Below are positions 1,228-63,887 of a DNA stretch of 64,000 bases, one piece after another. The DNA is from a virus. Its lineage: Duplodnaviria > Caudoviricetes. The DNA is taken from the IMG/VR virus record IMGVR_UViG_3300021255_001723, positions 6,576 through 70,575 of that record; one strand, 5' to 3'. The translations under genes and the position numbers were made by a program. The notes under the pieces are model-generated. The model made no database searches. It saw nothing but the letters and a program-made list of their open reading frames with translations, and was not told where the DNA came from. Positions within the stretch are counted from its first letter, which is position 1. Each line of letters starts with the position of its first letter.

Positions 1228-1353
1228 ACTATCTGAAAGCCAAGCGGTTAGCTTGAAAATAACTGTCAAAACGTTTGGAAAAAAGCAAAAAAATGATTAC
1301 CTTTGGATATCTTAATAAGAAACATTTTTTTTAACTTAAACGTAAGAGCAATG
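1219..1353 (+). promoter_or_regulatory. Repeated early promoter/leader cassette, copy 1
   Basis: AAAAGTTAAA...TTTGG...AAAAAATGATTACCTTTG...ATAAGAAAC...AAGAGCA-ATG; matches the Bacteroidetes -33 TTTG / -7 TAnnTTTG consensus. Confidence 0.8.
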
Positions 1354-1728
1354 AAGACGATTTCATTTCCGACCCGCAATCAGGTAATTCAGCTGAGTTC
1401 GTGCATAAAGTCAGCCGAAGAGTTTATTAACGCTTATAAGCAATCTCCAGACGAGAAGTTGCTCAAGGAACGCTTGTGCCAGGTAATCGACAAGCGCCCG
1501 AATATCGCATACCTCGACCCAGATGTGCTTTCGTGCTACGACATCGAAGTTGATGATTCTTCATGGGTCGAGTGCGACGAGGAAGAGGAGCAGTACGACC
1601 GTGAGCAACTAAAGGGTATTGTTAACGGGCTCGAGGGCTTTGAGCCGCACCACCTTTCATTCGGCAGCTCTGGCTCAATCCTTCGCACGATTTTCGGCGA
1701 TGCCTACGATGAAGTAAAGCGTTTGTAA
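1351..1728 (+). CDS. hypothetical protein
   Basis: Start reassigned to the ATG in AAGAGCAATGAAG. Confidence 0.75.
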   Translation: MKTISFPTRNQVIQLSSCIKSAEEFINAYKQSPDEKLLKERLCQVIDKRPNIAYLDPDVLSCYDIEVDDSSWVECDEEEEQYDREQLKGIVNGLEGFEPHHLSFGSSGSILRTIFGDAYDEVKRL

Positions 1729-4582: not shown

Positions 4583-4699
4583 ATCTTTGTTTATCAGTGG
4601 TTTACGCTGAAAATAATGCCCGAAAAATTTGGAAAATTGTCAAAAAATGACTACCTTTACATACAAATATAAGAAACCTTTTAAAGAAGAAGAGCAATG
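4574..4699 (+). promoter_or_regulatory. Repeated early promoter/leader cassette, copy 2
   Basis: AAAAGTTAAA...TTTGGAAAATTGTCAAAAAATGACTACCTTTACATACAAATATAAGAAAC...AAGAGCA-ATG. Confidence 0.8.
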
Positions 4700-5077
4700 G
4701 ATAAGAAACAAGAAATCGAGATTTTGCAGTCCCTAAAGGGTGACACGTACTTCGCAGACTTTTTCGGAAGTCACGACATCGACCAGATGTGCGAGAACAT
4801 CAAGAATGACTTCGGGCTGGAATACTGCTGCCAGTTCTATCAGAAGGCTTCCATCTTCGAGCAGCAGGTCCAGGAAGAGAAGAAGAAAGTCGTTGAGTTT
4901 AAGCAGAACTTTGTTAAAGGTCTGATAGAGGACTTTGATGGCGAAATCCCAAATCAAATGTATGATAGACTGGTTGACGCAGTAGGTCGGATATTCATCA
5001 TCAAATTCAAGTATAAAAGAAACTATCCGCTGACTGCAGCCGATATAGACTGGCTCATACAGGAGGCCAGCAAGTAA
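4697..5077 (+). CDS. hypothetical protein
   Basis: ATG in the AAGAGCAATG motif. Confidence 0.75.
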   Translation: MDKKQEIEILQSLKGDTYFADFFGSHDIDQMCENIKNDFGLEYCCQFYQKASIFEQQVQEEKKKVVEFKQNFVKGLIEDFDGEIPNQMYDRLVDAVGRIFIIKFKYKRNYPLTAADIDWLIQEASK

Positions 5078-5113: not shown

Positions 5114-5133
5114 ACAAAAGAGCAATAAGAAAC

Positions 5134-5709
5134 ATGAAAGACTTAGAAAAATTGAAGAGCGAATTTGAAAGAAAGTACAAGCTCGCTGAAATCGAGAATC
5201 AGATGGAAGTCAAGTTTGGTTGCGAATTTATGGCACTGGAACGCTTTAAAGTGCAGGGTTCTCGCATAATAGCAAAGACGGAGGATTTGCACATCGCAGC
5301 TGCAATTCTGAAAGAGTACCCTGCTGATGAAGAGCAGTCACTCAACTCATCCGCAAGAGACCCGAAGGGAACGGTGTTCGGTTTGTATCACGTAAGGGCT
5401 GAACGAGGTTTCCGTGACACCTACACGAAGTTGAAAATTTCGTGGCTACACAAAGGTAACGAGTTCGAGTTTAATCTGAAGATTGATGGAAATGAGATTC
5501 TCGAGCAGTTCTTTGTCAACGACCAGCGCAAGATGACAAGTATAGAGTGTGAGACGTACAAACCGATGAGACGTGGCCACATTGTGAGAGACATGGACTT
5601 GCCTATCAAGCGTTTCCTCTGCAATCAGATAGCATATCAGGGAGGTTATCGGTCAGCTACCGAGCCGGAGAGAATCATGGATATCGTTAACGCAATCAAG
5701 GAGGCATGA
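5134..5709 (+). CDS. hypothetical protein
   Basis: 191 aa ORF preceded by AAGAGCAATAAGAAAC. Confidence 0.7.
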   Translation: MKDLEKLKSEFERKYKLAEIENQMEVKFGCEFMALERFKVQGSRIIAKTEDLHIAAAILKEYPADEEQSLNSSARDPKGTVFGLYHVRAERGFRDTYTKLKISWLHKGNEFEFNLKIDGNEILEQFFVNDQRKMTSIECETYKPMRRGHIVRDMDLPIKRFLCNQIAYQGGYRSATEPERIMDIVNAIKEA

Positions 5710-6005
5710 TTATGGCAAAGGTAAGAACAATCCAAGTGAAGAACGTAGGCAATGTTTACACGGCATTCGTCTATCGTGGTTACTACTGCATCAAGGGCGG
5801 TGAGAGAGCATTTCACACCCCGAATATCCTGCGCAACAATAGCTGTGTTGACGACATCGTAGAGGATGATGAGTTTAATATGGCTCACGATCGCTTCGAT
5901 ACTCCAGAGTTTTTCAAGGAGGTCGTTGACGAGCATATCGAATATGCGGAAAGGTCTCACGGCTCACTACGAAAGTATCTAAGGGCTATGATGGGAGATT
6001 TTTGA
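5706..6005 (+). CDS. hypothetical protein
   Basis: ATGA overlap with the upstream gene. Confidence 0.65.
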   Translation: MIMAKVRTIQVKNVGNVYTAFVYRGYYCIKGGERAFHTPNILRNNSCVDDIVEDDEFNMAHDRFDTPEFFKEVVDEHIEYAERSHGSLRKYLRAMMGDF

Positions 6006-6035
6006 ATTAGTATTCACCATAAAAGTAATTGAAGT

Positions 6036-6695
6036 ATGGAATTTTTCAAGACGATTGCAGATTTCCTGCAGGACGGCCAGCAACTTCAGATGGCCATCAG
6101 AAAGAGCGGCGAAAGCATTGCCGTTAGTATCATGCCCGACAATCGGGGTGTCAAGGATAAGGCCGTGGAGAACATCACTCCGTTGGTCATGAGCGGCACT
6201 CCCGAAGACTTCGAGGAGGGCTTCAAAGACGCTCTGAAGCCGCTGGCACAGGCACAGGGCTTAGTGTCTAACATCAAGGAGTTCGAGGAGAGCACAGAGA
6301 AAGCCAAGCGCGAGTCCGAAATGGCAAAGAAGCTGAAGGATGAAGCAGCCAAGCAGAAGAAGGAGTTCAACGACCTCATCGCCCTTGCTCGGAAGAACAA
6401 CGATGAGCACAAGTTCAAGGATGCTCGTGCCGTACTGGCCAAGGCTTCTGCTCTCCCATCGGCTGAGAAGGCCATCATCGACAAAGTGAGCAGGGAAATC
6501 GATGCTAAGAGCGGTGTCGGTAACATGTTCGGAGGCGAGGAAGATTTGTCGGACGGCAAGAACCTCACTCCTGGAGCAAAGCCTGCTGCTCCTACACCTG
6601 CCCCCAAGAAGGAGGAAGATGCGACGGCAGCTGCTTTCAAGAAAGCTATGGAATTAGAAGACAATGATGATAACGAAAACGAAGAGGAGGAGTAG
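6036..6695 (+). CDS. PRTRC system protein E
   Basis: N-terminal ...IAVSIMP...ITPLVMSGTPEDFEEGF domain followed by a low-complexity tail; cassette context. Confidence 0.8.
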   Translation: MEFFKTIADFLQDGQQLQMAIRKSGESIAVSIMPDNRGVKDKAVENITPLVMSGTPEDFEEGFKDALKPLAQAQGLVSNIKEFEESTEKAKRESEMAKKLKDEAAKQKKEFNDLIALARKNNDEHKFKDARAVLAKASALPSAEKAIIDKVSREIDAKSGVGNMFGGEEDLSDGKNLTPGAKPAAPTPAPKKEEDATAAAFKKAMELEDNDDNENEEEE

Positions 6696-6698
6696 GAT

Positions 6699-6911
6699 AT
6701 GGCACTTAACGTAACAGGAATGAAGCGTGTGTTCAAGTTCGGAACACGAGAGTTGGAAGACCCCGACAAGAACATGTCGCCTGACGAGGTGATGCAGTTC
6801 TATTCTGCCACCTATCCAGAGTTGACTACGAGTAACGTGCATGGCCCGAAGGTCGATGACAAGCAACGAGCGGTGTACGAGTTTAAGACAACGGTAGGAA
6901 CGAAAGGATGA
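6699..6911 (+). CDS. PRTRC system protein C (ubiquitin-like)
   Basis: RVFKF...LEDPD...SPDEVMQFYSATYPELTTS...YEFKTTVGTKG with C-terminal Gly. Confidence 0.9.
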   Translation: MALNVTGMKRVFKFGTRELEDPDKNMSPDEVMQFYSATYPELTTSNVHGPKVDDKQRAVYEFKTTVGTKG

Positions 6912-6918
6912 GTAAGTC

Positions 6919-8121
6919 ATGCAAATCCAAAGAGCGACGAGAGTTCCACAAGGCTTTGTATTCCATCTTGGAAAACGACCAAAGGCAGGGATATCAGGCA
7001 AGGGACGAGGAGCGGCAACCGCTGCTCCCGCCCTCTGCGCCCCTGCTTTTCTGACAACCAAGATTGAGTCGATACGACCTTCAGACGAAGATGCAGCAAG
7101 CAGGTTTGGCATTAACATCGGCAAGAGTTATGCTAATGTCCTTGCTTGCTGCAAGCGTTTTCTGAAAATCGCAAAACAGGATTTCGATTTCAAGCCGAAC
7201 GTCGGATTGGCAAAAAGTCAGATGCTCGGAGAATTGATTGACTACTTTGAGTCGAAGATAGAGCCTCTCGGATTGGAACTTGTTGTCAGAAAGAAGAACA
7301 GCCAAGACGAAGAAACTGATGTCTTGCAATGTGTTGTATATAGGCCGGGCTTGGAGTTTGAAGGTACAATCCTTATCCTATATTGCGCCCCTGCTGTGTA
7401 TATGTCTGCAGAAGGTTGTCAGATGTATAAGCGGTTTATGAAGTTTGTCTCTGACAGCATGAACATTCCTCTCGGTGCAGCTGACCATAGTGAGAACTTT
7501 TACCTCGATTGTATCATCAACATGTATGAGTACGAGGACTTCGGCCAGTACGGAGAAGATGAAGAGTTAGTGGTGAGGAACCATATTCTTGACAAGTATA
7601 AGCAGGACGGAGAGTTTTGGAATCTCTTCGATGAAATCAACTCGCTCCCTAAAGAAAGGCCGGAGGATTTGTATGAAGCTTTGGAGGAATACCGACATCA
7701 ATGCCCGATAGACGAAACCGAAATCGTGGAAGCTATGATGGAAGGTATCGACATTGTGAAGGATGCAAACTGCTATTGGTTTGAATTCAACCCAGACGAT
7801 GATGGTATGGAAGATGAGTATGGCAACTATGGTAGTGAGGGCTACGCAAGTAGTGTATTCGCTTCGGCCATCCTCTTTTCGGAGAATGACGGTATTACCG
7901 AAGCTATGCTTGACATGATAAATAACGAAGCTGATTCAGGTATGATGATTACAGGCTGGAATATTCATCAATGGCTGTCGCCAAAGATGAAGAAGGCTGA
8001 CATTCTCGAGTTTTTAAGATGCAAGGATTTGATTGCATCACTTAGCGAGTGGACGAATACATTGTACCGAGCAGTTGAAAAATTTGACTTATATGGCAAA
8101 TCTGAGCAAGATACTGAATGA
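6919..8121 (+). CDS. PRTRC protein F-like acidic protein
   Basis: Assigned by position between C and B in the cassette; no motif recognised. Confidence 0.45.
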   Translation: MQIQRATRVPQGFVFHLGKRPKAGISGKGRGAATAAPALCAPAFLTTKIESIRPSDEDAASRFGINIGKSYANVLACCKRFLKIAKQDFDFKPNVGLAKSQMLGELIDYFESKIEPLGLELVVRKKNSQDEETDVLQCVVYRPGLEFEGTILILYCAPAVYMSAEGCQMYKRFMKFVSDSMNIPLGAADHSENFYLDCIINMYEYEDFGQYGEDEELVVRNHILDKYKQDGEFWNLFDEINSLPKERPEDLYEALEEYRHQCPIDETEIVEAMMEGIDIVKDANCYWFEFNPDDDGMEDEYGNYGSEGYASSVFASAILFSENDGITEAMLDMINNEADSGMMITGWNIHQWLSPKMKKADILEFLRCKDLIASLSEWTNTLYRAVEKFDLYGKSEQDTE

Positions 8122-8791
8122 GAAGCTGGAGGCTACTGATGCGCTGGTATTTTATAAGAGCAACCTTAATGATGGTGCGTATGTAGAACATCGGTCAATC
8201 AGGAACGGAGCCATGTGCGCTGGCAGGCCTCTTGAAATAGACGTCATAGCAAAGTTGCTGAAGACGGTTGATAAGTATGCGCACGGAACCACGTCGATGG
8301 TCTCTCTTCACGGAGAGATACCTGAGAATTTGTTGTACGCCAGTACGAGTATCGACTCCTATAAGCTGGTTTGGTACAGGAAGCCGGAGAAGAGAATGTT
8401 TTATTTCTCGGAAAATCTCGGCATTCCCAACGGAGAGGTGTTAGTTCCTGGTCTTGTCTATGTGACGGACGGTAGAACATTATCGATGTATGCCTTCAAA
8501 GGCCAGAAGCCGAAGAGGCTGTTATATCAGGCACCCTTCTTTAATACTAACACTAACGTTTGCCTTGGTAGCGGAAAGTTGCCGAAGCCAAAGGATCAGA
8601 CCTACGCAAACTGGATGGGATATTGGGAAGAGTTGTTTTGGAGAACGGAGTTTTCACACCTTATGGGCGGCAATCCTGTGAAGGGCAACCTATCCATCAT
8701 AATGAAGGAGTGCATAAGCGGTCACAAGCCGTTTCCATTGAGTTCTCTGATAGCTATAAAGACAACCCTCCAATCACTATATAAGAAGTAG
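8093..8791 (+). CDS. PRTRC system protein B (prokaryotic E2 family D)
   Basis: LVWYRKP...VPGLVY...LYQAPFFNTNTNVCLG...WEELFWRTEFSH; start moved to ATG 8093. Confidence 0.85.
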   Translation: MANLSKILNEKLEATDALVFYKSNLNDGAYVEHRSIRNGAMCAGRPLEIDVIAKLLKTVDKYAHGTTSMVSLHGEIPENLLYASTSIDSYKLVWYRKPEKRMFYFSENLGIPNGEVLVPGLVYVTDGRTLSMYAFKGQKPKRLLYQAPFFNTNTNVCLGSGKLPKPKDQTYANWMGYWEELFWRTEFSHLMGGNPVKGNLSIIMKECISGHKPFPLSSLIAIKTTLQSLYKK

Positions 8792-8798
8792 AAGAACC

Positions 8799-9080
8799 AT
8801 GAGTAAAAAAACAATAGAACATGCTGCCAGTGTTCTGAAAGAAATCAAGGCAGAAGTAAACGAAGGTGTCATCAAGGACTACGAGATGCCGACTTTGTGT
8901 AATATGGAAACGGCACGCGATACAGGCTTTGCCGTTATCCTGACACTTAGCACCAAGTATGACTACACAAGCGCAGTGATCGACGACTGGCGCAAGCGAT
9001 TGGAGGCTGACGACTACATGATTAGCGTGAAGCGAAACCAACTTAGAATAAGATTTAACGTAATGTATAGCAAGAAATGA
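8799..9080 (+). CDS. hypothetical protein inside the PRTRC cassette
   Basis: ORF coupled by ATGA overlap to the ThiF gene. Confidence 0.7.
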   Translation: MSKKTIEHAASVLKEIKAEVNEGVIKDYEMPTLCNMETARDTGFAVILTLSTKYDYTSAVIDDWRKRLEADDYMISVKRNQLRIRFNVMYSKK

Positions 9081-9853
9081 AGTACAAGCATTTTGTTCAT
9101 CCCTACATCTTAGACCCTGCGCATCCGCTGACGATAGCCTTGATAGGTGCCGGCGGTACTGGCTCGCAGGTGTTGACCTCCCTCGGTAGGATGAATTACG
9201 CATTGAGGGAGTTGGGCCACCCTGGTCTTCATGTAAAAGTGTATGATGCAGACATCGTGACACCTGCCAACTGCGGCAGGCAGTTGTTCGCTCCGCAAGA
9301 GATCGGCCGGAACAAGGCTGAGGTGCTGACGACAAAGCTGAACATGTTCTTCGGAACGTCATGGGAGAGTATTCCCGAAATGTTCAATGAGAGTTCGGAG
9401 CAAGCGAACATCGTAATTTCCTGCGTCGATACGGTGGCTTCACGGCTTGCCATCGATAAGAACCTCGAATTTCCGAATAAGAGAGGCCTGAACGGCTACG
9501 ACATACAGGTGAATTACTACTGGCTGGACTTCGGTAACACGCAATCCACAGGACAGGTAATACTCGGAACTAAGCGGGATATCAGTCAGAACAAGAAGAA
9601 GACCGATGTTGGCAAGTTGCGCTGTGTGACAGACTTCTTCGACCTTAAAAAAGTCAAGGAGAAGGATAGTGGGCCAAGTTGCTCACTTGCGGAGGCCTTG
9701 ACCAAGCAGGACTTGTTCATCAACTCGACGCTTGCTCAAATCGGCATGGCTCTCTTGTGGAAGATGTTCACGAAGGGAGTGCTCGACATACAGGGCGCAT
9801 TCTTGAATCTCGACACAATGAAGGTAAACCCGATAAAGATTGAGAAGATATGA
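9077..9853 (+). CDS. PRTRC system ThiF family protein (E1-like)
   Basis: GAGGTGS nucleotide loop, D-x-D...NCGRQ, CVD, WLDFGN, GPSCSLAEAL. Confidence 0.92.
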   Translation: MKYKHFVHPYILDPAHPLTIALIGAGGTGSQVLTSLGRMNYALRELGHPGLHVKVYDADIVTPANCGRQLFAPQEIGRNKAEVLTTKLNMFFGTSWESIPEMFNESSEQANIVISCVDTVASRLAIDKNLEFPNKRGLNGYDIQVNYYWLDFGNTQSTGQVILGTKRDISQNKKKTDVGKLRCVTDFFDLKKVKEKDSGPSCSLAEALTKQDLFINSTLAQIGMALLWKMFTKGVLDIQGAFLNLDTMKVNPIKIEKI

Positions 9854-10528: not shown

Positions 10529-10561
10529 GTGCGTTTATTTCAAGCATATTTTGTACCTTTG
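10529..10561 (+). promoter_or_regulatory. Promoter with palindromic operator-like box (late class)
   Basis: GTGCGTT-N5-CAAGCA (10529-10546), then TACCTTTG (10554-10561). Confidence 0.65.
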
Positions 10562-11066: not shown

Positions 11067-11140
11067 GGATGGATAGCTCAGTTGGTCAGAGCACCTGTCT
11101 GTTAAACAGGGAGTCGGAGGTTCAAGCCCTTCTCCATCCG
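11067..11140 (+). tRNA. tRNA-Asn (GTT)
   Basis: Cloverleaf: GGATGGA/TCCATCC acceptor, CCTGT-CTGTTAA-ACAGG anticodon arm, TTCAAGC T-loop, G73. Confidence 0.85.
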
Positions 11141-11149
11141 CAGGTTGAA

Positions 11150-11241
11150 GTTCCAGTAGGGGCCTTGTGTATTCAAGGTGAGTAAAAGGAAGTTAGATGT
11201 TAATGCTAACAAGTATGCAGGTTCGAGTCCTGTCTGGAGCG
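11150..11241 (+). pseudogene. tRNA-like element with intact acceptor stem and T-arm but enlarged D region
   Basis: GTTCCAG/CTGGAGC, GCAGG-TTCGAGT-CCTGT, GTTAG/CTAAC stem with 9-nt loop. Confidence 0.5.
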
Positions 11242-11247
11242 AATACT

Positions 11248-11320
11248 TAGCAGTTAGCTCAGTTGGTAGAGCACCCGATAGATAATCGGGAGGTCATTGG
11301 TTCGAGTCCCTTACTGCGAA
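11248..11320 (+). pseudogene. Degenerate tRNA-Ile (GAT)
   Basis: Normal D-arm and CCCGA/TCGGG anticodon stem, but A33, two T-stem mismatches and one acceptor mismatch. Confidence 0.6.
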
Positions 11321-11322
11321 AC

Positions 11323-11395
11323 GCGGAAATAGCTCAGTTGGTAGAGCGTTATCTTCCCAAGATAAAGGCCGGAGGTTCGAGTCCTCCTTTCCGCT
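11323..11395 (+). tRNA. tRNA-Gly (CCC)
   Basis: GCGGAAA/TTTCCGC acceptor, U73, TTATC-TTCCCAA-GATAA, GGAGG-TTCGAGT-CCTCC. Confidence 0.88.
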
Positions 11396-11470
11396 CAGAG
11401 AGAGTATTTAGCCGTAGTGGAAACTCCCGAATAAACATGGAACGACATGAGTGTGAGAATCCCTCTTTAA

Positions 11471-11548
11471 CGCGGAGTAGAGCAGTGGTAGCTCGTCTGG
11501 CTCATAACCAGAAGGTCGTCTCAAACGGTTCGAATCCTGCCTCCGCAA
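11471..11548 (+). pseudogene. Initiator-type tRNA-Met (CAT) with disrupted, expanded T-stem
   Basis: C1:A72 mismatch, CTCATAA loop; GTCTCAAACGG replaces the 5-nt 5' T-stem strand. Confidence 0.6.
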
Positions 11549-16266: not shown

Positions 16267-16601
16267 AGAATATACCGATAGAGAAGATTATTCAGATTTA
16301 TGAGAAGAAGGGTTGCAATATCACGGCAACCTGTACTGCGCTCGGTATCTCCCGAAAGACCTTCTACGAATGGAAGGAGAAGAAGAAGAAACTCGCTGAA
16401 GGACTGGAGGCTGCTGAGGAGGCTATCATAGACTTCGCGGAGTCCAAGTTGGTTGAGCATATCAATAACGATGATGTGCAGGCTTTGATATTCTTCCTCC
16501 GAACCAAGGGCAAGAAGCGAGGCTATGTCGAGAAGACCGAGACCGACGTGAACATCAACCAGTTCGAGAAATTGATGCAAGATACCGAGGACGACGAGTA
16601 A
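16263..16601 (+). CDS. Terminase small subunit
   Basis: HTH NITATCTALGISRKTFYEW, then ALIFFLRTKGKKRGYVE; directly upstream of TerL. Confidence 0.8.
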   Translation: MKNIPIEKIIQIYEKKGCNITATCTALGISRKTFYEWKEKKKKLAEGLEAAEEAIIDFAESKLVEHINNDDVQALIFFLRTKGKKRGYVEKTETDVNINQFEKLMQDTEDDE

Positions 16602-18113
16602 ATGGTTCAAAACGATAAGTGGCAGAAGAAGATGAAAGCGTGGAGGAAAGACTGGTGCCTGTTCGCCAAGCAAGTTCTCCATGCTCGTCTCGATGAGGAA
16701 CAGAAGGCCATCCTGCGTGCCGTACAGAACGAGCGCATGGTGGCCGTTGCTTCGGGTACGGCCCGAGGCAAAGACTATATTGCCGCTGTCGCTTGTCTTT
16801 GTTTCATGTACCTCACTCCTCGATGGAAGGACGGGAAGCTGATTAAGAACACCAAGATTGCCATGACAGCCCCTACCGACCGACAGGTAAGGAATATCAT
16901 GGTGCCGGAGGTCAGACGTTTATACAAGGCAGCTCAGGTGCTGCCTGGCCGATTGGTGGGCTATGACATACGAACGAACTATGAGGAATGGTTCTTGACG
17001 GGCTTCAAGTCGAGTGCGGACAACACGGAGGCATGGTCGGGTTTCCATGCTGTCAATACGATGTTCGTTGTCACGGAGGCATCGGGTATCTCGGAAACCA
17101 TTTACAATGCCATCGAGGGTAACTTGCAGGGTAACTCTCGTCTGCTGATAGTGTTCAACCCCAACATCACTACTGGCTATGCAGCCAAGGCCATGAAGTC
17201 GGCACGTTTCAAGAAATTCCGTCTCAACTCCCTGCACGCTGAGAACGTGGTTCGCAAGGAGAATGTGATACCAGGCCAAGTTGACTACGAATGGGTGAAG
17301 GATAAGGTTGAGAACTGGTGCATCCGCATCCGAAAGGAAGATGTCAACGAGGGTGAGGGCGACTTCGAATGGGAAGGCCAATGGTACCGACCAAACGACC
17401 TTTTCCGTGTCAAGGTGCTCGGAATGTTCCCGAAGGTTGCAGAGGATGTCCTTATCCCATACGAATGGGTGGAACTGGCAAACAGGCGCTGGGAGGAACT
17501 GCAAGAGGAAGAATTTGAGCCGAAGAAGAAATGCCGCCTCGGTGTCGATGTTGCCGGAATGGGTCGTGATGCTTCAGTTCTTTGCCCGAGATACGGGAAC
17601 TACGTTGAAAAGTTTGAGGTGCATAACTCTGCTGGTGTGGCAGACCACATGCACGTCTGCGGAATGACAATTCCTTATCTCAAGAAGAAAGGTGCCAAGG
17701 CGTTCGTTGACACCATTGGCGAAGGTGCAGGGGTATTCTCTCGGCTTAGGGAATTGAACTACCAGAACGCTTATTCCTGTAAGTTCTCTGAGGGTACGAG
17801 AAACCTGCATGATGTCACGGAGGTTTACACCTTTTCGAATATGCGTGCTTATTTGTATTGGGCGGTTAGGGACTGGCTAAACCCGAAGAATGGCTTTCAA
17901 CCTGCATTGCCTCCTAACGATTTGCTGTTGCAGGAATGTACCGATGTGCATTGGAAGTTTCAGAGTTCAGGTGATATTCTCATTGAATCGAAAGATGAGA
18001 TAAAGAAACGCCTCGGAAGGTCGCCGGACTACCTCGATGCTCTGGCTAACACCTTCTATCCGAGAGACTACGAAGCAATCCAAGAAAGCGAACTTTTCAA
18101 AGATTTTCTTTGA
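16602..18113 (+). CDS. terL: Terminase large subunit
   Basis: VASGTARGKD Walker A-like motif, VVTEASG Walker B, nuclease motifs LGVDVAGMGRD and RSPDYLDALA. Confidence 0.92.
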   Translation: MVQNDKWQKKMKAWRKDWCLFAKQVLHARLDEEQKAILRAVQNERMVAVASGTARGKDYIAAVACLCFMYLTPRWKDGKLIKNTKIAMTAPTDRQVRNIMVPEVRRLYKAAQVLPGRLVGYDIRTNYEEWFLTGFKSSADNTEAWSGFHAVNTMFVVTEASGISETIYNAIEGNLQGNSRLLIVFNPNITTGYAAKAMKSARFKKFRLNSLHAENVVRKENVIPGQVDYEWVKDKVENWCIRIRKEDVNEGEGDFEWEGQWYRPNDLFRVKVLGMFPKVAEDVLIPYEWVELANRRWEELQEEEFEPKKKCRLGVDVAGMGRDASVLCPRYGNYVEKFEVHNSAGVADHMHVCGMTIPYLKKKGAKAFVDTIGEGAGVFSRLRELNYQNAYSCKFSEGTRNLHDVTEVYTFSNMRAYLYWAVRDWLNPKNGFQPALPPNDLLLQECTDVHWKFQSSGDILIESKDEIKKRLGRSPDYLDALANTFYPRDYEAIQESELFKDFL

Positions 18114-18126
18114 TTTGTATGATAGA

Positions 18127-18149
18127 TTGGAAAAATTTTCATACCTTTG
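18127..18149 (+). promoter_or_regulatory. Bacteroidetes-type promoter for the putative sRNA
   Basis: TACCTTTG at 18142-18149; no ORF of meaningful length before the terminator. Confidence 0.6.
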
Positions 18150-18153
18150 CATC

Positions 18154-18233
18154 GTTTCTTATATGAAGCTGCTTCAAGCAGACTTCATTGCTCTTGCCAG
18201 TCCAAGCCGTGAGGCCTCGGGCTGGTTTTTTTT
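18154..18233 (+). ncRNA. Putative trans-acting antisense sRNA (~80 nt)
   Basis: Contains GTTTCTTATAT and CTTCATTGCTCTT, exact reverse complements of the ATATAAGAAAC and AAGAGCAATGAAG leader motifs; internal hairpin; ends in stem-loop plus T8. Confidence 0.6.
18197..18233 (+). terminator. Intrinsic terminator with GTGA tetraloop
   Basis: CCAGTCC-aa-GCC-GTGA-GGC-ctc-GGGCTGG-TTTTTTTT. Confidence 0.8.
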
Positions 18234-18257
18234 GTTCCCGAAAACCGCTTCTGAAAC

Positions 18258-18396
18258 AAAAGTTAAACTATCTGAAACATAGGTAGTTGCACGGAAATTT
18301 CTTTGAAAAACGCTTGGAAAATTGCAAAAAAATGAGTACCTTTACATACAATTATAAGAAACATCATTATTAACGTTTTAAAGAAGAAGAGCAATG
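18258..18396 (+). promoter_or_regulatory. Repeated early promoter/leader cassette, copy 3
   Basis: AAAAGTTAAA...TTGGAAAATTGCAAAAAAATGAGTACCTTTACATACAATTATAAGAAAC...AAGAGCAATGAAG. Confidence 0.8.
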
Positions 18397-18777
18397 AAGA
18401 CGAAGAAATTTTTGGTTTACTACAATGAAAGTAAGCAGTTGATCGGTTTACGTGAACACCACTTCGATTGGGAAGAGGGTGATGAAATCACGACTAACGG
18501 TGTAAGAACGGTGATTTTCGGTATCTTTGAAGGTACAGACCGGAACATGAGACTGGTAAAGAGTATGTTTGATACGCTTCGTAGGTATCTCCCGAAAAAG
18601 AAGTGGGTACAGGTTCTTGACGGCGATTTCAGGGCCACTGGTGATTGGTTCGAGGACATGATGAATGCTATGGTTCATTCCCACTATGAGTTGGTGGACG
18701 TCAAGAAGAAGGTCTGGAAGGACTTTGACGCTCAGCTGGATTTCGTAGATAGCGTGTTTGCAAAGATGGATTGTTAA
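18394..18777 (+). CDS. hypothetical protein
   Basis: ATG in the cassette motif. Confidence 0.75.
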   Translation: MKTKKFLVYYNESKQLIGLREHHFDWEEGDEITTNGVRTVIFGIFEGTDRNMRLVKSMFDTLRRYLPKKKWVQVLDGDFRATGDWFEDMMNAMVHSHYELVDVKKKVWKDFDAQLDFVDSVFAKMDC

Positions 18778-18792
18778 GAAAGGAGGCAAGTC

Positions 18793-18963
18793 ATGAAGCA
18801 AGTAATCATCGACATCATCAAGGAAGGCTGGGAGAAGAACCTGCCAGTATGTGAGGTAATCGCAAACATCGTCTCTGAAACAGGATTGTATGAGCGGTAT
18901 GCGAAGGACCAGTTCACGGAATTAGTGTTCTCGGCTAAGCCGGGAGTTAGTGTTAAACCTTAA
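18793..18963 (+). CDS. small hypothetical protein (56 aa, MKQVIIDIIK...)
   Basis: Read by hand; fills the gap in the operon. Confidence 0.55.
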   Translation: MKQVIIDIIKEGWEKNLPVCEVIANIVSETGLYERYAKDQFTELVFSAKPGVSVKP

Positions 18964-18975
18964 AAGAACAAAGCT

Positions 18976-19269
18976 ATGGAGATTAAGATGGAGTTAACCC
19001 CGATTATGAAGCAATACTTCGATTTGAAGAAGAAACACCCAGACGCCTTGTTGCTGTTCAGACGCGGCGACTTTTACGAGGTCTTCGAAGATGACGCTGC
19101 AGATGCAGCTCGCATTCTGGGAATCACTCTCACAAAGCATCGCAGAGGATATAGGCTCGCAGCTTTTCCACATCATGCGCTCGACATATATTTGCCGAAG
19201 TTAGTAAGGGCAGGTAGGAGAGTAGCTATCTGCGAACAGCTGGAAGCACCTAAGAGGAGTCAGAGCTAA
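18976..19269 (+). CDS. Stand-alone MutS domain I (mismatch-binding) protein
   Basis: TPIMKQY...[30 protein letters not shown]...[25 protein letters not shown]. Confidence 0.9.
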
Positions 19270-19296
19270 TTATTGCTCTTCAATAGATGAAGACCC

Positions 19297-19329
19297 CTGC
19301 GCTGGTCTGGGAAGATAGGCGCAGTTTTT
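19297..19329 (+). terminator. Intrinsic terminator
   Basis: CTGCGC...GCGCAG stem with inner GGGA-loop hairpin, then TTTTT. Confidence 0.65.
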
Positions 19330-19352
19330 ACCCACCCTAAAACAAGAAAGAT

Positions 19353-19601
19353 ATGAGATTACAAGTTGAAATTCATGTAATGGCAGAGCAGGATGCTCTC
19401 GCACGTTATCATCTTAACTGGGATGCTGCTCTTAGAGAGCAGTTTGATTACCAAGGTTTTGGCATTTGGTGCTCGAACGGAAGGTACGAAGCCGGATATG
19501 ATGATGAAGCTGCTAAGTCCTTGAAGGCGTTTGCTGACAAGCGCTTGAAGGAACATGGAGTTACGGAGTTCTATACTACGATAGAAGAAATTGACGATTA
19601 G
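19353..19601 (+). CDS. hypothetical protein
   Basis: ORF with A-rich leader. Confidence 0.6.
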   Translation: MRLQVEIHVMAEQDALARYHLNWDAALREQFDYQGFGIWCSNGRYEAGYDDEAAKSLKAFADKRLKEHGVTEFYTTIEEIDD

Positions 19602-19654: not shown

Positions 19655-19720
19655 GTGCTTGAAATGCGCATAATTTTCCTTTAAATGTGCGTGTTATTCA
19701 AGCACTTTTTCGTATCTTTG
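19655..19720 (+). promoter_or_regulatory. Portal promoter with operator-like boxes (late class)
   Basis: GTGCTTGAA (19655) / TTCAAGCAC (19697) inverted pair; GTGCGTG-N5-CAAGCAC; TATCTTTG at 19713-19720. Confidence 0.65.
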
Positions 19721-19743
19721 TGGCGTTATAACATTTTGCGTAT

Positions 19744-24628: not shown

Positions 24629-24757
24629 ACAATTTGAAAATCAAGTTGTTAGCTTGAAAATAGGTGGGTAAAAATTTGGAAAATTGTCAAAAAATGACTA
24701 CCTTTACATACAATTATAAGAAACATCATTATTAACGTTTAAAGTAGAAGAGCAATG
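24620..24757 (+). promoter_or_regulatory. Repeated early promoter/leader cassette, copy 4
   Basis: AAAAGTTAAA...TTTGGAAAATTGTCAAAAAATGACTACCTTTACATACAATTATAAGAAAC...AAGAGCAATGAAG. Confidence 0.8.
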
Positions 24758-25087
24758 AAGAAGTTTGATTTGAAAGTAGGACAAGTAGTCGATTTTTACC
24801 ACTACTATGACAGCGAGAAAAAGCATCCAGTTCAGGGAACGGTTTTAGGCGTACAAGAAGCAACGAAGTACGACCGCGAGAGTTCAGACCTGCTTCACTG
24901 GATATGGTTCTTGAACAGCAAGAATGAAGTCTGCGTAGCCACACACGATGCAGACGGCACTATCTGCTGGGATGATACGTGGACGGACTTCACGGATTTC
25001 AACCATCATCCGTACGAACGCAGTCTAAACGCAGCAGGTTATAGGTTGAGTAAAGAGAATGGCTATTGGGAAGCGTTTAAGAAATGA
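24755..25087 (+). CDS. hypothetical protein
   Basis: ATG in the cassette motif. Confidence 0.75.
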   Translation: MKKFDLKVGQVVDFYHYYDSEKKHPVQGTVLGVQEATKYDRESSDLLHWIWFLNSKNEVCVATHDADGTICWDDTWTDFTDFNHHPYERSLNAAGYRLSKENGYWEAFKK

Positions 25088-25148
25088 TAGCTTAGTTTGA
25101 AGATAGAGTTATAAGAAACATAGTATTAACAGTTAATTTTTTAGAGCA

Positions 25149-51619: not shown

Positions 51620-52078
51620 ATGGACAACAGAATCTTAACCCTGCTTATATGCGGAGGCATTATGCTGCTGATGTATATTACCATTCTCGCCCTGATACTT
51701 GCCGACCTTTGGTCAGGCGTCCGTAAGGCGAAGAAGCGTGGAGAATTCCGAACCTCGGATGGCTATAAAAGAACCATCGACAAGATAGCACGCTACTACA
51801 ACATGACGTTCGCCATGTCGCTGATAGACGTCGTTCAGGTGGCCATCATATTTTTCCTATACTACTTCTACGAGGTGGATATCTGGATGATACCTTGGTT
51901 CACGCTATTTGCGACAGGATATGTAGCATGGGTTGAGATTCATTCCATCTGGGAACCTGCTGATATCAAAGAGAAGAAGCAGCAGAAAGATTATACGAAG
52001 GCTCTGCTTGCTGTGATTGAACAGTACGGCGGAGCTGAGAAGGTTATTCAGTTGTTAACTAAAAGAGAAGAGCAATGA
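51620..52078 (+). CDS. Holin
   Basis: LILADLWSGVRKAK...RTSDGYKRT..K..YY; TM helices; directly before the endolysin. Confidence 0.75.
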   Translation: MDNRILTLLICGGIMLLMYITILALILADLWSGVRKAKKRGEFRTSDGYKRTIDKIARYYNMTFAMSLIDVVQVAIIFFLYYFYEVDIWMIPWFTLFATGYVAWVEIHSIWEPADIKEKKQQKDYTKALLAVIEQYGGAEKVIQLLTKREEQ

Positions 52079-53535: not shown

Positions 53536-53661
53536 AAAAGTTAAATAATTGGAAATCAGAAAGTTGCGAGGAAAAATAATTTGGAAAACGTTTGGAAATT
53601 TGGTAAAAAATGATTACCTTTACATACAAATATAAGAAACCATTAAATTAGAAGAGCAATG
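53536..53661 (+). promoter_or_regulatory. Repeated early promoter/leader cassette, copy 5
   Basis: AAAAGTTAAA...TTTGG...AAAAAATGATTACCTTTACATACAAATATAAGAAAC...AAGAGCAATGAAG. Confidence 0.8.
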
Positions 53662-54018
53662 AAGACGTACAAAGAGTTGAAAGATTTCTGCGAAACAAAG
53701 AATGTTCGCCACGAAGTTAACACGATTTTCGGCAAGCCTTACGAGTACCCCGTTTACGAGAACGGCAAGGTAGTCTGGAAGGAGGAACGCCCAATCTTAG
53801 GTTTTGAGTTCGGCATGTGCAACATCGCTGGCCGGAAAGGTAAGAGCGAGTGGCAGTGGGTTTGGTTCGAGACCATCCTCTGCCCGAAGGAACTGGAGGA
53901 CGATACGAAGTTCTGCTTCCGCAACCGTTACTCTCAGGTTAACGGTCTTGACCACAAGGGCTGGAGAGAGGAGTTTAATGCCGAGAACACGATTGAGTTA
54001 AGAATGAGTAAAGTCTAA
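53659..54018 (+). CDS. hypothetical protein
   Basis: ATG in the cassette motif. Confidence 0.75.
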   Translation: MKTYKELKDFCETKNVRHEVNTIFGKPYEYPVYENGKVVWKEERPILGFEFGMCNIAGRKGKSEWQWVWFETILCPKELEDDTKFCFRNRYSQVNGLDHKGWREEFNAENTIELRMSKV

Positions 54019-54037
54019 CCCTTAAATAAGAAGAGCA

Positions 54038-54970
54038 ATGAAGGTAAGTAATGAATTGTTGAAGCAGATGCAGGAAAAGACCGAGAGCATCCGCAAGCAC
54101 ATCGCAGACTATGAGTCTGGCGACAAGATGAACTACTGGTGCCATCCGACATCGTGGATGAAAGAAGCAGCCAAGCATGGTGCGGAGAACATCTTCATGG
54201 TTGGAAATTCGTACAGGAGCCACGCCTATGATGACTACGCCACGTTCACGTACTACAACCAAGCTACGATGGAGGAGTTTACCGACAGTTGGACAACCGC
54301 AGGTGCCTGTCCAAGCTACAGCCTCTATGAGTGCATGACCATTGAGGAGGCATTCAGGAAGGGTCTTCTCGATGAAGAGAAGTACGTCCGTTTCCGAAAG
54401 GAGATCAGCCTGAAGTATCTGGAAAGCTACCATTGCCCAAGCCTGAGCGTGGATGATTTCATTAAGTACAAGGTTCGTGTGGAGGTAACGGGAGGCCGCA
54501 AGTGGAAGGGAACTGGATATGCCTTGTCTTCCAAGTGGGTGTCATTCGGCTACCACCAGACCAAGTATGTCAGCATTTTAGACCCTGAGACTAACCTCGT
54601 GCATGAGATTAGCGACAGGTGGGTGCATCCAGCCGAAGATATCGAAACGGTCATCCCTCAATACAGGGAGTGGGCAAAGGCCAAGATAGCATCCGTAATG
54701 CCGGGCGCTTTACGCATGGGTGACCGTGGCCTTTACGTCGAAGGACTGATGTTCAACTTCTACGACTGGCTTGAAGAAAAAGCTAAGAGCGTAGAGTTGG
54801 ATATGTCGAAGGCCGTCAATCCTGCTCAGGATGAGAGAGACCGGAGAAAGGCCGATTTCAAGACAAGAAAGATGGCTGACTTGGTAGAGTGGGTGAAGAA
54901 GAACACCGACAAGCAGGGGGATGCCATCTTGCAACTGGCAGAACACATTTTCCAGAAGAGGTACGCATAA
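54038..54970 (+). CDS. hypothetical protein
   Basis: 310 aa; ATG within AAGAGCAATGAAG. Confidence 0.8.
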   Translation: MKVSNELLKQMQEKTESIRKHIADYESGDKMNYWCHPTSWMKEAAKHGAENIFMVGNSYRSHAYDDYATFTYYNQATMEEFTDSWTTAGACPSYSLYECMTIEEAFRKGLLDEEKYVRFRKEISLKYLESYHCPSLSVDDFIKYKVRVEVTGGRKWKGTGYALSSKWVSFGYHQTKYVSILDPETNLVHEISDRWVHPAEDIETVIPQYREWAKAKIASVMPGALRMGDRGLYVEGLMFNFYDWLEEKAKSVELDMSKAVNPAQDERDRRKADFKTRKMADLVEWVKKNTDKQGDAILQLAEHIFQKRYA

Positions 54971-54986
54971 GATAGGAGGACTGACT

Positions 54987-55223
54987 ATGAGTAGAAGACA
55001 CAAGTATTTCTTTACCGAAGAATGGGACGAGGGCGGCAGGAACCATGTGGCCGCCTACGGCCTGTGTAAGCGCAAGGAGATTGACAGCATTGTAGAGCAG
55101 ATGGAAAGGTATTCTCCATACGACTACGTTGATTCCGTAGAATGTGACACGGAAGAAGATTACAAATCCCGACTGCAGGCCCGTATCAATGACGGTGCCG
55201 AGGTCAAGTATTATAACCAGTAA
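54987..55223 (+). CDS. hypothetical protein
   Basis: Start moved to ATG 54987. Confidence 0.65.
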   Translation: MSRRHKYFFTEEWDEGGRNHVAAYGLCKRKEIDSIVEQMERYSPYDYVDSVECDTEEDYKSRLQARINDGAEVKYYNQ

Positions 55224-55235
55224 ATTGAAAGAGCA

Positions 55236-55727
55236 ATGAAGAAAGAAAGACTGAAAGCAGCGATTGATGAGCTGACCTCCATCATCGATGAAATGCAGAC
55301 AGAGGTCAACGAGTTCCACGCAAAGAAGGGAGATTGGTATGACTTCCACCTCCAGCTGTACCGCAGCGGTCTCATGTCAGACGAGCAGTTCGAGCGGGAT
55401 ATATGGAAAGAGACTCAGAGCATGCACACCTGCTTTGACGATGATCTGTACGCTCTCCAGCGTTTGGTAATTGTCCTCGACAAAAGGTACGGGTCGTTCA
55501 AGCAGCTTAGGGAACACCTCGACAGGGTTGTTGCCTGTTCGCGCACGAAGCCTCATGACTGGAAGGAGTTCGATGTTGAGTTCAAGGACAGCGATTGCGA
55601 CCACGTAGAGAAGAACCGCTTCTTTGCTCCCAGCGAGAACTATGCCGTACAGATGTGCATGAAGTACAATAAGTACGAGGAGAACGAGGTTGACATCATC
55701 GAAGTAAAGGAGGTGAGCCATGATTGA
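55236..55727 (+). CDS. hypothetical protein
   Basis: ATG within AAGAGCAATGAAG. Confidence 0.75.
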   Translation: MKKERLKAAIDELTSIIDEMQTEVNEFHAKKGDWYDFHLQLYRSGLMSDEQFERDIWKETQSMHTCFDDDLYALQRLVIVLDKRYGSFKQLREHLDRVVACSRTKPHDWKEFDVEFKDSDCDHVEKNRFFAPSENYAVQMCMKYNKYEENEVDIIEVKEVSHD

Positions 55728-57166: not shown

Positions 57167-57294
57167 ACTATCTGAACAGCAGGTAGTTACGATGAAATTA
57201 TAGGGATTTTCCCTTGGTCATTTGCGAAAAAATGACTAACTTTACATCGTATATAAGAAACCCCATTTTAGTAACTTAAAGTAGAAGAGCAATG
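57158..57294 (+). promoter_or_regulatory. Repeated early promoter/leader cassette, copy 6
   Basis: AAAAGTTAAA...AAAAAATGACTAACTTTACATCGTATATAAGAAAC...AAGAGCAATGAAG. Confidence 0.75.
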
Positions 57295-57561
57295 AAGATT
57301 TCAGAAAAGACAATTAAGAACGGAGCACACGAGTTCAAGTTTGAAGGCGGTGCGTGGGCCAAACTCGACATCGACGGAGAGTATGGTTCTTGGGAGTTCC
57401 AGGAGGACGAGGACGATGAGGAAACCTATTCAGAAGGTGGCCTTTGGTTCGAGGGAATGGAACTTGTAGATTATGACGGCTGCTTCGAGCTTCCCGATGA
57501 GGTGGCAATGGCAATCAAGGAACTGGGTTATAAAGTAGTTGACTTGGAGGATGAACAATGA
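57292..57561 (+). CDS. hypothetical acidic protein
   Basis: ATG in the cassette motif. Confidence 0.75.
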   Translation: MKISEKTIKNGAHEFKFEGGAWAKLDIDGEYGSWEFQEDEDDEETYSEGGLWFEGMELVDYDGCFELPDEVAMAIKELGYKVVDLEDEQ

Positions 57562-58034
57562 ACACAAGATTTGAAAACTATGTAAGCACGCTGACACCTG
57601 CAAAGCAGCTGTTGGCAAGAGAAGCCGTGCAGGCGTACTTGGCTGGAGAGTCGGAAGACATTGAACGCCTCCTCTCTCCTGTGGGCGTATGGAAGAAGTC
57701 AAGATGGCTGGCCGACAAAGAGACGGAGCATTTCGTGGTTTATTACATGAAGAACAATTACCGCATCATCAAGTCAGAGACGATTTCCTTTGGTGGCCTT
57801 GATTCTACGCTTGTCGATGTGAGGGTTGTCCTGAAGCATGCCATCCTTTGTGGTGCTACCTGCATGACTTGTGTGCACAACCATCCCTCTGGTTCTACAA
57901 CGCCGAGCAAGCAAGATGACAAGCTGACTGAAAAAATCAACAGGGCTTGTGAGGTTATGGGCGTTAAGCTCATTGACCATGTGATAGTGACCGACAAGAA
58001 TTATTATTCGTATCAAGAAAATGGAAAGTTATGA
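57558..58034 (+). CDS. RadC-like JAB domain protein
   Basis: TEHFVV...VHNHPSGSTTPSKQD...LIDHVIV. Confidence 0.9.
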   Translation: MNTRFENYVSTLTPAKQLLAREAVQAYLAGESEDIERLLSPVGVWKKSRWLADKETEHFVVYYMKNNYRIIKSETISFGGLDSTLVDVRVVLKHAILCGATCMTCVHNHPSGSTTPSKQDDKLTEKINRACEVMGVKLIDHVIVTDKNYYSYQENGKL

Positions 58035-58665: not shown

Positions 58666-58932
58666 ATGCAGTTCGGTATAAACTGGAACGATGGCTACGA
58701 AGTGACCGTGCTGATGGTCGGTGAACATGGCTATCTGAGGCACTTTCCCTTGCGCAACTTCGGAGAGCACCAAGGCGATGCAAGAATCTTCAAGGAGGTC
58801 GATTGCCCGAAGCTGACAGATGTTCAGATCCGTATGCTGATTAAGAACTACGACCCGAAAGTGAAGTACAAGCGGATAAGCGGTACGAGGTTTGTCCGTG
58901 AGAAGGTCACAGACCAAGAACGTAGTCTATGA
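58666..58932 (+). CDS. hypothetical protein
   Basis: Follows the upstream stop by 1 nt; its 3' end overlaps the integrase 3' end. Confidence 0.6.
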   Translation: MQFGINWNDGYEVTVLMVGEHGYLRHFPLRNFGEHQGDARIFKEVDCPKLTDVQIRMLIKNYDPKVKYKRISGTRFVREKVTDQERSL

Positions 58933-60121
58933 CCTTGCGGTTGGCTTCGTCAACCTTCCGCAAATCCTTATCGATATAGATGGCTGTTGTCCTGTTGCCA
59001 AAAGAATGGCCGAGGGCAGCAGCTATCGTTTCGTTGGGTATCTCCAGTTCGTAGGCTATCGTGGCCCATGTGTGTCTGGCAACATAAGTCGAGAGACCGG
59101 GAAAGGCAGGGTGATAGACAAGCTGTCTCTTTCCGTCCTTTATTATGTGCTCGCGCGTACCTATTTGTTTTAGTGCTCGGTTGACGGTGCTTGTGAAGGT
59201 ATGCGCACTTTTGAAATTGTCTGCGATATTAAGCAGTTTCTTTGTTCCTCGGTAGCGGTCTATGATTTCTTGTGCTTCGGGCTCTACCTTGATGTTGTAT
59301 AATCGGGAGGTTTTGGAACGCTGATAAACTATTCTCCCATCCACAACCTCCGTGAGGTTACACAAGTCTATAAGATTGATTCCAATGAGATAGAAGATTA
59401 GTTTAAACAGGTCAATGTATTTCTGCTCATGAGGAAGCACGGGGTAGGCAAACAACTCTCTCATTTTCTCAACGCTGAAAGCTCGCTTGGCTGTCGGAAC
59501 TGACCGAACCATGAACTTGCGGAAGGGGTAGGAGGTGGTCACGTCATTGTCGATGGCATCATTGAAAACGGCACGGATATTCCGAAAGTGGATGGAACGG
59601 GAGTTCTGCGATGGCTCAAACTCCATCAGGAACCTGTCGAATCGGGTGAGCCAGTCCTTGCCGATCTGCTCGAAGGACAGCTGGCCAGCCTTCGGGTCAA
59701 ACTGGATGATACGTTTGTAGGTCGCCTCGTAGATTTCTCGGGTACGCTGCTTCTGCCTCGTTTCCATGTAGCCCTTGAAGCGGTTGATGAAAAGGGTTCC
59801 CTCCTCGCTGTTCGGGTTAAGCAGGTCAACGATGAGGTTCTTGATTTGCACGGCGGACATCTTTGCCAGCCTACCTTCAGCGGTCAGCTGCAGGAGCAGG
59901 GTGTCAATCTTCTGCTTTTGGTTCTGAATATAGGAGTTGAGGGCAACCTTGTTCGGATTGTCCTTAACCCTGCCGTGTTCCCTATCCCATTGGCCGGGAA
60001 AGATACGAAGGTCAAGTGGAATGTATGCGGCCACTCCATGCTTGGTGATACTCACCTTCAGAGGGGCTGGCTCACCACGTTTCACGGCTCTCGTATCGAG
60101 GTACAGTTTCGTTGTTGCCAT
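58907..60121 (-). CDS. int: Tyrosine integrase
   Basis: Arm-binding N-terminus, SAM-like domain, YQRSKT, STYVARHTWAT, ALGH, TTAIY catalytic motifs. Confidence 0.95.
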   Translation of the reverse strand: MATTKLYLDTRAVKRGEPAPLKVSITKHGVAAYIPLDLRIFPGQWDREHGRVKDNPNKVALNSYIQNQKQKIDTLLLQLTAEGRLAKMSAVQIKNLIVDLLNPNSEEGTLFINRFKGYMETRQKQRTREIYEATYKRIIQFDPKAGQLSFEQIGKDWLTRFDRFLMEFEPSQNSRSIHFRNIRAVFNDAIDNDVTTSYPFRKFMVRSVPTAKRAFSVEKMRELFAYPVLPHEQKYIDLFKLIFYLIGINLIDLCNLTEVVDGRIVYQRSKTSRLYNIKVEPEAQEIIDRYRGTKKLLNIADNFKSAHTFTSTVNRALKQIGTREHIIKDGKRQLVYHPAFPGLSTYVARHTWATIAYELEIPNETIAAALGHSFGNRTTAIYIDKDLRKVDEANRKVIDYVLGL

Positions 60122-60643: not shown

Positions 60644-60709
60644 CGAAAAAAGTGCTTGTGCCGCAAATTTGTAACAGTATTTAAGAATTTTCATCTTATG
60701 GCAAGAGCA

Positions 60710-60928
60710 ATGAAAGAAACAAAGAGTTTGTGGTCCATCTGGAGCAAGTCGGTTCAGTGGGACAAGAAGACTGCCAAGCAGAAGCTGATTTCTGCTTGGT
60801 TCAGCCTTTCGTTTATCGTGTTGGGCGTGAGTGGAAGCAGCTTCATATTCTCCATCATCGCCGCAGTCAATTTCGGTTGTGCAGCCTACTTCACAGCCAA
60901 GTACGTTCCAGTCAGCGAGGAGGATTAG
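60710..60928 (+). CDS. small membrane protein
   Basis: ATG in AAGAGCAATG; two hydrophobic helices. Alternative start at 60698. Confidence 0.65.
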   Translation: MKETKSLWSIWSKSVQWDKKTAKQKLISAWFSLSFIVLGVSGSSFIFSIIAAVNFGCAAYFTAKYVPVSEED

Positions 60929-63302: not shown

Positions 63303-63303
63303 T

Positions 63304-63855: not shown

Positions 63856-63887
63856 CTATATGTTTAATCAATTCAAATTCAAGAGCA

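Follow-up and report, generated by a model that had tools for sequence, protein, structure and literature searches.

Directly behind the large terminase gene (terL) of a temperate Bacteroidales phage, we identified a short unit (18142–18233) in which a −7 promoter box is followed by a hairpin, a seed left exposed and a terminator ending in U8. This unit very probably specifies an antisense RNA that acts in trans to keep translation from being initiated across a tagged early regulon. This reading is drawn from sequence, and no transcript was seen. The seed is complementary to a tag, AAGAGCAATG, which spans the start codons of the early cassettes, the xis-like operon and the AAA ATPase gene. A widespread gut and rumen prophage family appears to run a regulon of 7–25 genes in this way, by means of one sRNA and a start-codon tag.

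The window, i.e., the whole 64,000-nucleotide stretch analysed here, is contained in a 70,575-base (70.6-kb) virus contig. We assigned the contig to a temperate Bacteroidales phage because it combines Bacteroidota −7 boxes with TerL, a portal protein, a tyrosine integrase and a xis-like gene. Its closest terminase relatives were viral contigs and prophages of Prevotella, Parabacteroides and other Bacteroidales, and no close named phage was found; cultured carriers are Prevotella vespertina A2879, Prevotella sp. KH2C16 and Parabacteroides faecalis AGMB00274. LoVEphage (MW660583; PMC8525569), a temperate Bacteroidales phage carrying tRNA genes, resembles the window phage in lifestyle, host order, approximate size and tRNA genes, but it lies outside the family of the window phage and carries a single tag copy. 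We rejected identity with it, its terminase not being among the close matches (best in the collection below 30%). The window's own tRNA genes comprise four at 11067–11548, ahead of the packaging operon, and one at 31603–31674 in the tail region. A literature search on the tag motif and on phage sRNA regulons in Bacteroidota returned nothing relevant.

Anatomy of the proposed RNA unit behind terL

terL is the final gene of the packaging operon, and the 28 nt between its stop codon and the −7 box of the unit contain no hairpin; the first terminator downstream is the unit's own. The first-pass annotation had placed a non-coding unit with its own promoter and a T8 terminator at this site, and its coordinates hold. 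We infer a transcription start at ∼18153–18155. The promoter carries neither the box shared by the early promoters nor that shared by the late ones. The fold of the unit (z = −3.4 versus shuffles) agrees with the earlier proposal of an ATGAAG/CTTCAT hairpin that leaves TGCTCTT free: these seven nucleotides (18189–18195) form an unpaired toehold, and in the window lineage the 3′ arm of hairpin 1 masks the anti-AUG portion of seed B′. CTTCATTGCTCTT (18183–18195) lies within this seed, which had an unpaired probability of 0.5–0.98 by folding and can be extended into both hairpins. A generic terminator scan misses the terminator hairpin owing to an internal loop.

RNA data did not bear on transcription of the unit. 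The phage was barely present in the 11 available runs (best share 0.10), for which only contigs existed, and they are uninformative on this point. Four of them gave scattered short contig pieces over 16500–19500, none covering the unit, which is not evidence of absence.

Coordinates of the sRNA unit, its candidate targets and reference genes (window positions unless a locus is given)
Feature	Position	Strand	Remarks
Large terminase gene, terL	16602–18113	+	phrog_2, E 9e-32
Bacteroidota −7 promoter box of sRNA	18142–18149	+	TAnnTTTG box here in nearly all unit-bearing relatives
Seed A′ (5′ single strand)	18154–18164	+	GTTTCTTATAT; antisense to early-cassette leader box; lineage-limited
Hairpin 1	18163–18188	+	From fold; sequence variable, hairpin formed in 26/26 folded copies
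Seed B′	18183–18199	+	Core 18186–18195 antisense to start-codon tag; alignment columns invariant
Intrinsic terminator	18196–18233	+	From fold; GUGA loop, U8
Early cassette	1298–1356	+	Promoter, leader box 1315, tag 1344, ATG 1351
Target with two boxes	4652–4709	+	Promoter, box 4667, tag 4690 (10-nt match), ATG 4697, second box 4701 (colinear order); strongest predicted pairing with sRNA
Target with fused motifs	5118–5136	+	Half tag joined to leader box, immediately ahead of ATG 5134; upstream of PRTRC cassette
Target	18337–18399	+	Promoter, box 18353, tag 18387, ATG 18394
Two targets	24699–25154	+	ATG 24755 (own promoter; box 24715, tag 24748, exact 13-mer); ATG 25149 (internal gene; box 25110, tag 25143, 12-nt match)
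Three targets	53615–55241	+	ATG 53659 (promoter; box 53630, tag 53652); ATG 54038 and 55236 (internal genes, tag only, 54031 and 55229); tags exact 13-mer
Target	57236–57297	+	Promoter, box 57251, tag 57285, ATG 57292
72-aa hydrophobic gene	60699–60928	+	Longest match (16 nt); ATG 60710
AAA_24 ATPase gene start	63880–63893	+	ATG 63888; 12-nt match; homologue is PF13479; replication/recombination module
Endolysin start (possible target)	52068–52078	+	ATG 52075; 11-nt match
Tyrosine integrase	58907–60121	−	Temperate lifestyle; no tag
Second scaffold with seed (∼115–120 nt)	L043:19291–19415; L013:16894–17012; L089:20486–20603; L106:16130–16247		Head-operon 5′ leader

Start-codon tags and the proposed target genes

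Exact word counts, evaluated against order-3 and order-5 Markov models of this genome, showed enrichment of both motifs. The 10-mer tag occurs 11 times on the + strand (0.27–0.70 expected), and its only antisense copy is inside the sRNA unit. The 13-mer that is the reverse complement of CTTCATTGCTCTT occurs exactly seven times, as had been reported (1344, 18387, 24748, 53652, 54031, 55229 and 57285; 0.014–0.05 expected), each time with its ATG in frame with an ORF. The leader 9-mer is present nine times (0.6–1.4 expected), namely at all eight sites claimed for the complement of GTTTCTTATAT (1315, 4667, 5125, 18353, 24715, 25110, 53630 and 57251) and additionally at 4701. The judgment that two inverted motifs in one short transcript are unlikely by chance was borne out, with only ∼4e-5 occurrences of both antisense words within 60 nt expected under these models.

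Tags mark ∼13 dispersed early genes in the window. Six copies come with a duplicated promoter cassette, so the copies are not all independent; the starts at 5134, 25149, 54038, 55236, 60710 and 63888 belong to genes that do not come first in this cassette, and several tagged genes have no nearby promoter. Across 17 genomes, 145 of 184 sense tags (79%) coincide with the first ATG of an ORF of at least 45 aa, versus 8.6% of all ATGs, and when 253 candidate starts were ranked by predicted pairing energy, the tagged ones came out on top. No tag is present on the structural genes, the integrase or the terminase. The longest seed matches fall on key lytic genes: the xis operon, the AAA ATPase and, in relatives, a helicase. 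Most targets have no known function, and Pfam, PHROGs, NCBIfam and the ESM Atlas name almost none of them; the tag marks which of these unannotated genes are early and need quieting. Unnamed small tagged genes also sit inside late regions.

The shorter matches listed in the first-pass annotation are all present, but they are of unequal worth. The one at 60699 is 16 nt long, one more than had been stated; it lies at a gene directly preceding the xis-like HTH_17 gene (60931–61134) and divergent from the integrase, and its extended form is kept in G001, G003 and G004. The tag at 25149 is kept in all five homologues, that at 55236 in all four, and at the ATPase start six of six homologues have the tag or a G-U compatible variant. 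By contrast, the endolysin match at 52068 is not conserved in relatives, and the 12-nt match at 21515 falls within an overlapping doubtful ORF. We treated the 10-nt match at 56665 as chance since it is not conserved in relatives, and likewise a 15-nt match at 60834–60848, inside the 72-aa gene and antisense to hairpin 1, which is not kept in orthologues.

Where leaders bear a promoter, the box precedes the tag by 10–14 or 21–25 nt. This spacing is bimodal in the window leaders and in G001–G004, with rare 3-nt cases, and may reflect two cassette templates. The motifs are arranged differently at 5134, where the 16 nt before the ATG (5118–5133) are exactly complementary to the strand obtained by looping out hairpin 1, so that seed A′ abuts the toehold. 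This motif order is the same in G004 and G018 and swapped in G002; the G004 site is 2 nt longer and matches that phage's own slightly longer RNA. A search of viral contigs for the exact 5118-type site found none.

Conservation and covariation in related phages

The unit lies behind terL in most relatives, over a range of 60–92% TerL identity, and a unit of this kind immediately follows the gene in the majority of the 80 closest viral loci. A pattern scan returned more than 109 loci; the promoter-bearing ones that we inspected were 35–85 nt behind a same-family TerL wherever upstream DNA was available. Aligning 26 distinct copies showed variation everywhere except in the seed core and the terminator loop, and the three inner terminator pairs all show double changes, in 8–13 of the 26 sequences. 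RNAalifold on this sequence-only alignment recovered the inner terminator stem alone, hairpin 1 being variable in length, and we folded the copies singly; all 26 formed two hairpins with the 3′ part of the seed unpaired. Thirty-one relatives carry 2–24 sense tags each and usually exactly one antisense copy. Seed A′ is restricted to some lineages and is missing from many that retain the leader box.

In relatives where no unit follows terL, the seed mostly resides in a different and longer RNA, again equipped with a promoter and a terminator of its own. This second scaffold is the leader of the head operon, the next gene being 39% identical to window gene 26837. Its 5′ hairpin is complementary to its terminator loop, suggesting an attenuator switch, and an Rfam search with it gave no match. 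In the window, the head-operon leader (26745–26813) keeps the 5′ hairpin of the second scaffold and lacks the seed, as does that of G017. The Prevotella KH2C16 prophage has a third antisense seed copy upstream of an early cassette (L294:17455; G033:C11:37455).

Tag clusters are absent from more distant prophages that possess neither of the two RNAs. A Paludibacteraceae prophage of the same family (L290/L289, contig G037:C4) keeps the early cassettes and has no sRNA, on a contig that may be incomplete; a loose, drifted AGAGTTATG-like tag remains at 3–4 of its starts.

Covariation between seed and tags, which the earlier reading had offered as a check, is present. L096 has one C-to-T substitution in its seed, answered by a G-to-A substitution in every one of the four tags at that locus; its 5′ seed also matches two leaders over 16–17 nt, and L086 matches its leaders over 14 nt. 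Extensions of the seed into the terminator arm are lineage-specific, and certain genes carry their complement, giving 14–17 perfect pairs (G031 versus G010, G032 and G033; G008 and G009 versus G017; and L106). In G031, G010 and the P. vespertina and Prevotella KH2C16 prophages, the genes concerned are those for the AAA ATPase and the helicase, at their starts; in G008 and G009 versus G017 it is a small gene, and in the window lineage the start at 60710. Pairing of tags with their own sRNA beat pairing with foreign sRNAs for both seeds (0 of 20,000 permutations did as well). These permutations ignore relatedness, so the p values overstate independence; a tree in which all rows were kept, and whose deep forks are unresolved, places the informative seed and tag changes on about five separate branches. 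A test of G-U wobbles versus mismatches in tags with a single change had too few counts, and a switched seed sought in the L093 prophage was not found.

Relatives that keep the leader motifs without any antisense copy had been named as grounds for refutation, and this was met in part. The phages that have only the second scaffold (G022, G024 and G030), together with L088, ranked 18–20 of 22 in the own-versus-foreign test, and their sRNA match is merely 8–9 bp though 6–8 tags, fewer than elsewhere, are kept.

Mechanism, timing and comparison with known systems

Transcription, toehold binding, strand exchange and the block of initiation are inferred; anatomy, conservation, complementarity and covariation are what we could establish. 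An RNA of ∼80 nt would be made from its own promoter and also as the 3′ end of terL transcripts. Its unpaired toehold would pair with the 7 nt preceding the AUG, and strand exchange would then open hairpin 1, covering the AUG and the next codon, such that ribosome loading is blocked and decay perhaps follows. In Bacteroidota, translation starts mostly lack Shine-Dalgarno pairing. In the window lineage, the second 5′ seed (A′) could add affinity through the leader box. The caveat raised originally, that the two seeds have the same order as the target motifs and could not form one simple colinear duplex, is eased by the site at 5118–5133, to which both seeds are perfectly complementary once hairpin 1 is looped out. 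Colinear order is found at 5118, 4690–4709 and 60699–60720, where a three-way junction may form. The box-then-tag leaders remain non-colinear; joint binding there would need a looped, pseudoknot-like geometry, which the two free 5′ ends would in principle permit, or else the contacts would be alternative, as in G001 and G002, where a box-to-tag spacing of 2–3 nt permits just one seed at a time. The two seeds are best seen as modular, and seed A′ is, judging from its distribution, a lineage-level addition, because the leader box also occurs in phages lacking it.

Its likeliest role, by a narrow margin, would be that of a safeguard in the lysogen, acting after transcription to silence early genes that leak and setting a threshold which induction must overcome. 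The idea of one RNA silencing a dispersed early regulon is supported by covariation; its timing is undecided, and no transcript was observed. The same pairing could instead act mainly late in lysis, with an RNA that arises from terL read-through and genome amplification shutting early genes off. We regard this alternative, which is compatible with the safeguard, as a serious possibility short of an even chance. The unit is fixed directly behind terL and supplies its terminator, and the second scaffold is a head-operon leader, so both seed carriers are tied to late operons, which suggests a late-lysis boost. Yet the sRNA has a consensus host promoter of its own without the shared box of late promoters, which, together with the lack of the early box, suggests constitutive expression and a lysogen safeguard. 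Furthermore, the phage is temperate and the best matches fall on its excision and replication genes, and the second scaffold ends in a terminator, like leader-derived immunity RNAs. As to which role is the main one, the matter is undecided, with at most a slight lean toward the safeguard.

We considered whether the tag is primarily a positive translation signal or the site of a phage or host protein, with the antisense RNA only tuning or secondary. Tags do persist where the antisense match is just 8 bp, and the relative without the RNA keeps its loose tag, so the cassette may predate the RNA. However, in five host genomes outside the prophage the tag occurred only at near-chance frequency; it is therefore not a host-wide start signal, and host targets are not indicated. 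It also co-changes with the seed in L096 and drifts where the RNA is missing, and we consider this account unlikely.

We think it very improbable that both motifs are DNA operators of a repressor, with inverted copies behind terL. They are short asymmetric repeats near promoters with spacings that cluster at 10–14 and 21–25 nt, about one helical turn apart, and the P1 C1 operator starts with a similar string. Against this, 79% of tags are in register with start codons, including ones distant from promoters, orthologous leaders differ in motif order, and each of two unrelated scaffolds invariably presents the inverted copy as a single strand within a conserved RNA fold. At 5118, complementarity exists only if the hairpin is looped out; this exact match and the co-change of seed and tag speak for RNA pairing. 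An inverted remnant of the leader cassette, or chance, is hardly credible: sixfold duplication means that tags are not independent origins, but the motif order is unlike a simple inversion, tags occur at genes outside the cassette, and conservation of the unit with compensatory changes from 92% to 60% TerL identity, own-versus-foreign pairing and the terminator double changes contradict it.

As far as its sequence goes, the putative antisense RNA that we favor fits the description of a trans-acting base-pairing sRNA, being a short non-coding unit with a conserved, accessible seed complementary to separate mRNAs. Among phage RNAs, C4 of P1/P7 comes closest. C4 has three stem-loops with seeds in the loops, is processed by RNase P, and has pairing elements directed at a translation start and upstream of it, the latter giving lineage specificity; lysogeny and immunity depend on it, and it sits upstream of the icd-antirepressor operon that it controls, its one immunity locus (PMC5320573, citing Citron and Schuster 1990). 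Like C4, the inferred RNA would be ∼80 nt long, come from a temperate phage and have two short pairing elements and targets in its own phage. Such a pair of start and upstream elements is present in the window lineage as seeds B′ and A′, with A′ absent in other lineages. The phage sRNA differs in having two hairpins with the main seed in the linker (26/26 folds), its own promoter and terminator, a place behind terL and 7–25 targets spread genome-wide. The Rfam C4 models gave no gathering-score match in the window and five related loci and none at E up to 10 over 18050–18450, and no Rfam family matched, including the FopS model/R1 seed.

GibS and FopS of Bacteroides thetaiotaomicron are multicopy sRNAs of the host that act on its own transporter mRNAs and have an unpaired 5′ end followed by a single hairpin; GibS has two seeds, and for FopS a block of initiation at the start-codon region has been demonstrated in Bacteroides (PMC11697453). 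Membership in this group is marked by host PUL or metabolic mRNA targets and RbpB binding (PMC11697453). The phage RNA shares the Bacteroidota host-type promoter, the intrinsic terminator and a start-codon-directed seed, but is one phage copy facing a tag built into the phage's own genes. By analogy, it would work like C4 and GibS/FopS, and it is a member of neither. The P4 CI immunity RNA is leader-derived and acts on its own leader transcript; the second scaffold resembles it as a terminated leader-type RNA, whereas the targets of the phage sRNA are dispersed and in trans. To our knowledge, phage immunity RNAs described so far act on one locus. The novelty is in scale and design: a single RNA, a tag in up to 25 start codons per phage genome, and two scaffolds.

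More tentatively, and below even odds in our estimate, the tag may constitute a phage-wide address system in which any gene with a tagged leader joins a one-RNA regulon. The core would silence early genes family-wide, the variable second seed and stem-invading extensions would set lineage specificity and rank targets, and the seed in two unrelated late-operon scaffolds would give both lysogen and late control. If so, broad superinfection protection across Prevotella, Bacteroides and Parabacteroides phages would follow. The family provides natural compensatory seed and tag pairs, a handle on prophage dormancy in Bacteroidales and possibly a compact repression tool in Bacteroides.

The early cassettes (1219, 4574, 18258, 24620, 53536 and 57158) share AAAAGTTAAA, ∼70 nt upstream of a non-consensus TACCTTTA box with an A-run before it, and this arrangement is conserved family-wide. 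In the middle and late promoters, the −7 element is preceded by a common GTGY-N5-TTCAAGCA box (10530–10561, 19700–19743, 26690–26740 and a genome position 608 nt before the window); the copy at the portal gene is conserved in the four closest relatives, and the box is a candidate site for a phage activator, a LuxR-type HTH gene being present at 63247–63855. Downstream of the best-matched target at 5134 lies a PRTRC ubiquitin-like cassette (5134–9853; E 6036, B 8033, ThiF 9077), and a RadC-like JAB gene in another tagged cassette (57558–58034) could be its missing JAB partner.
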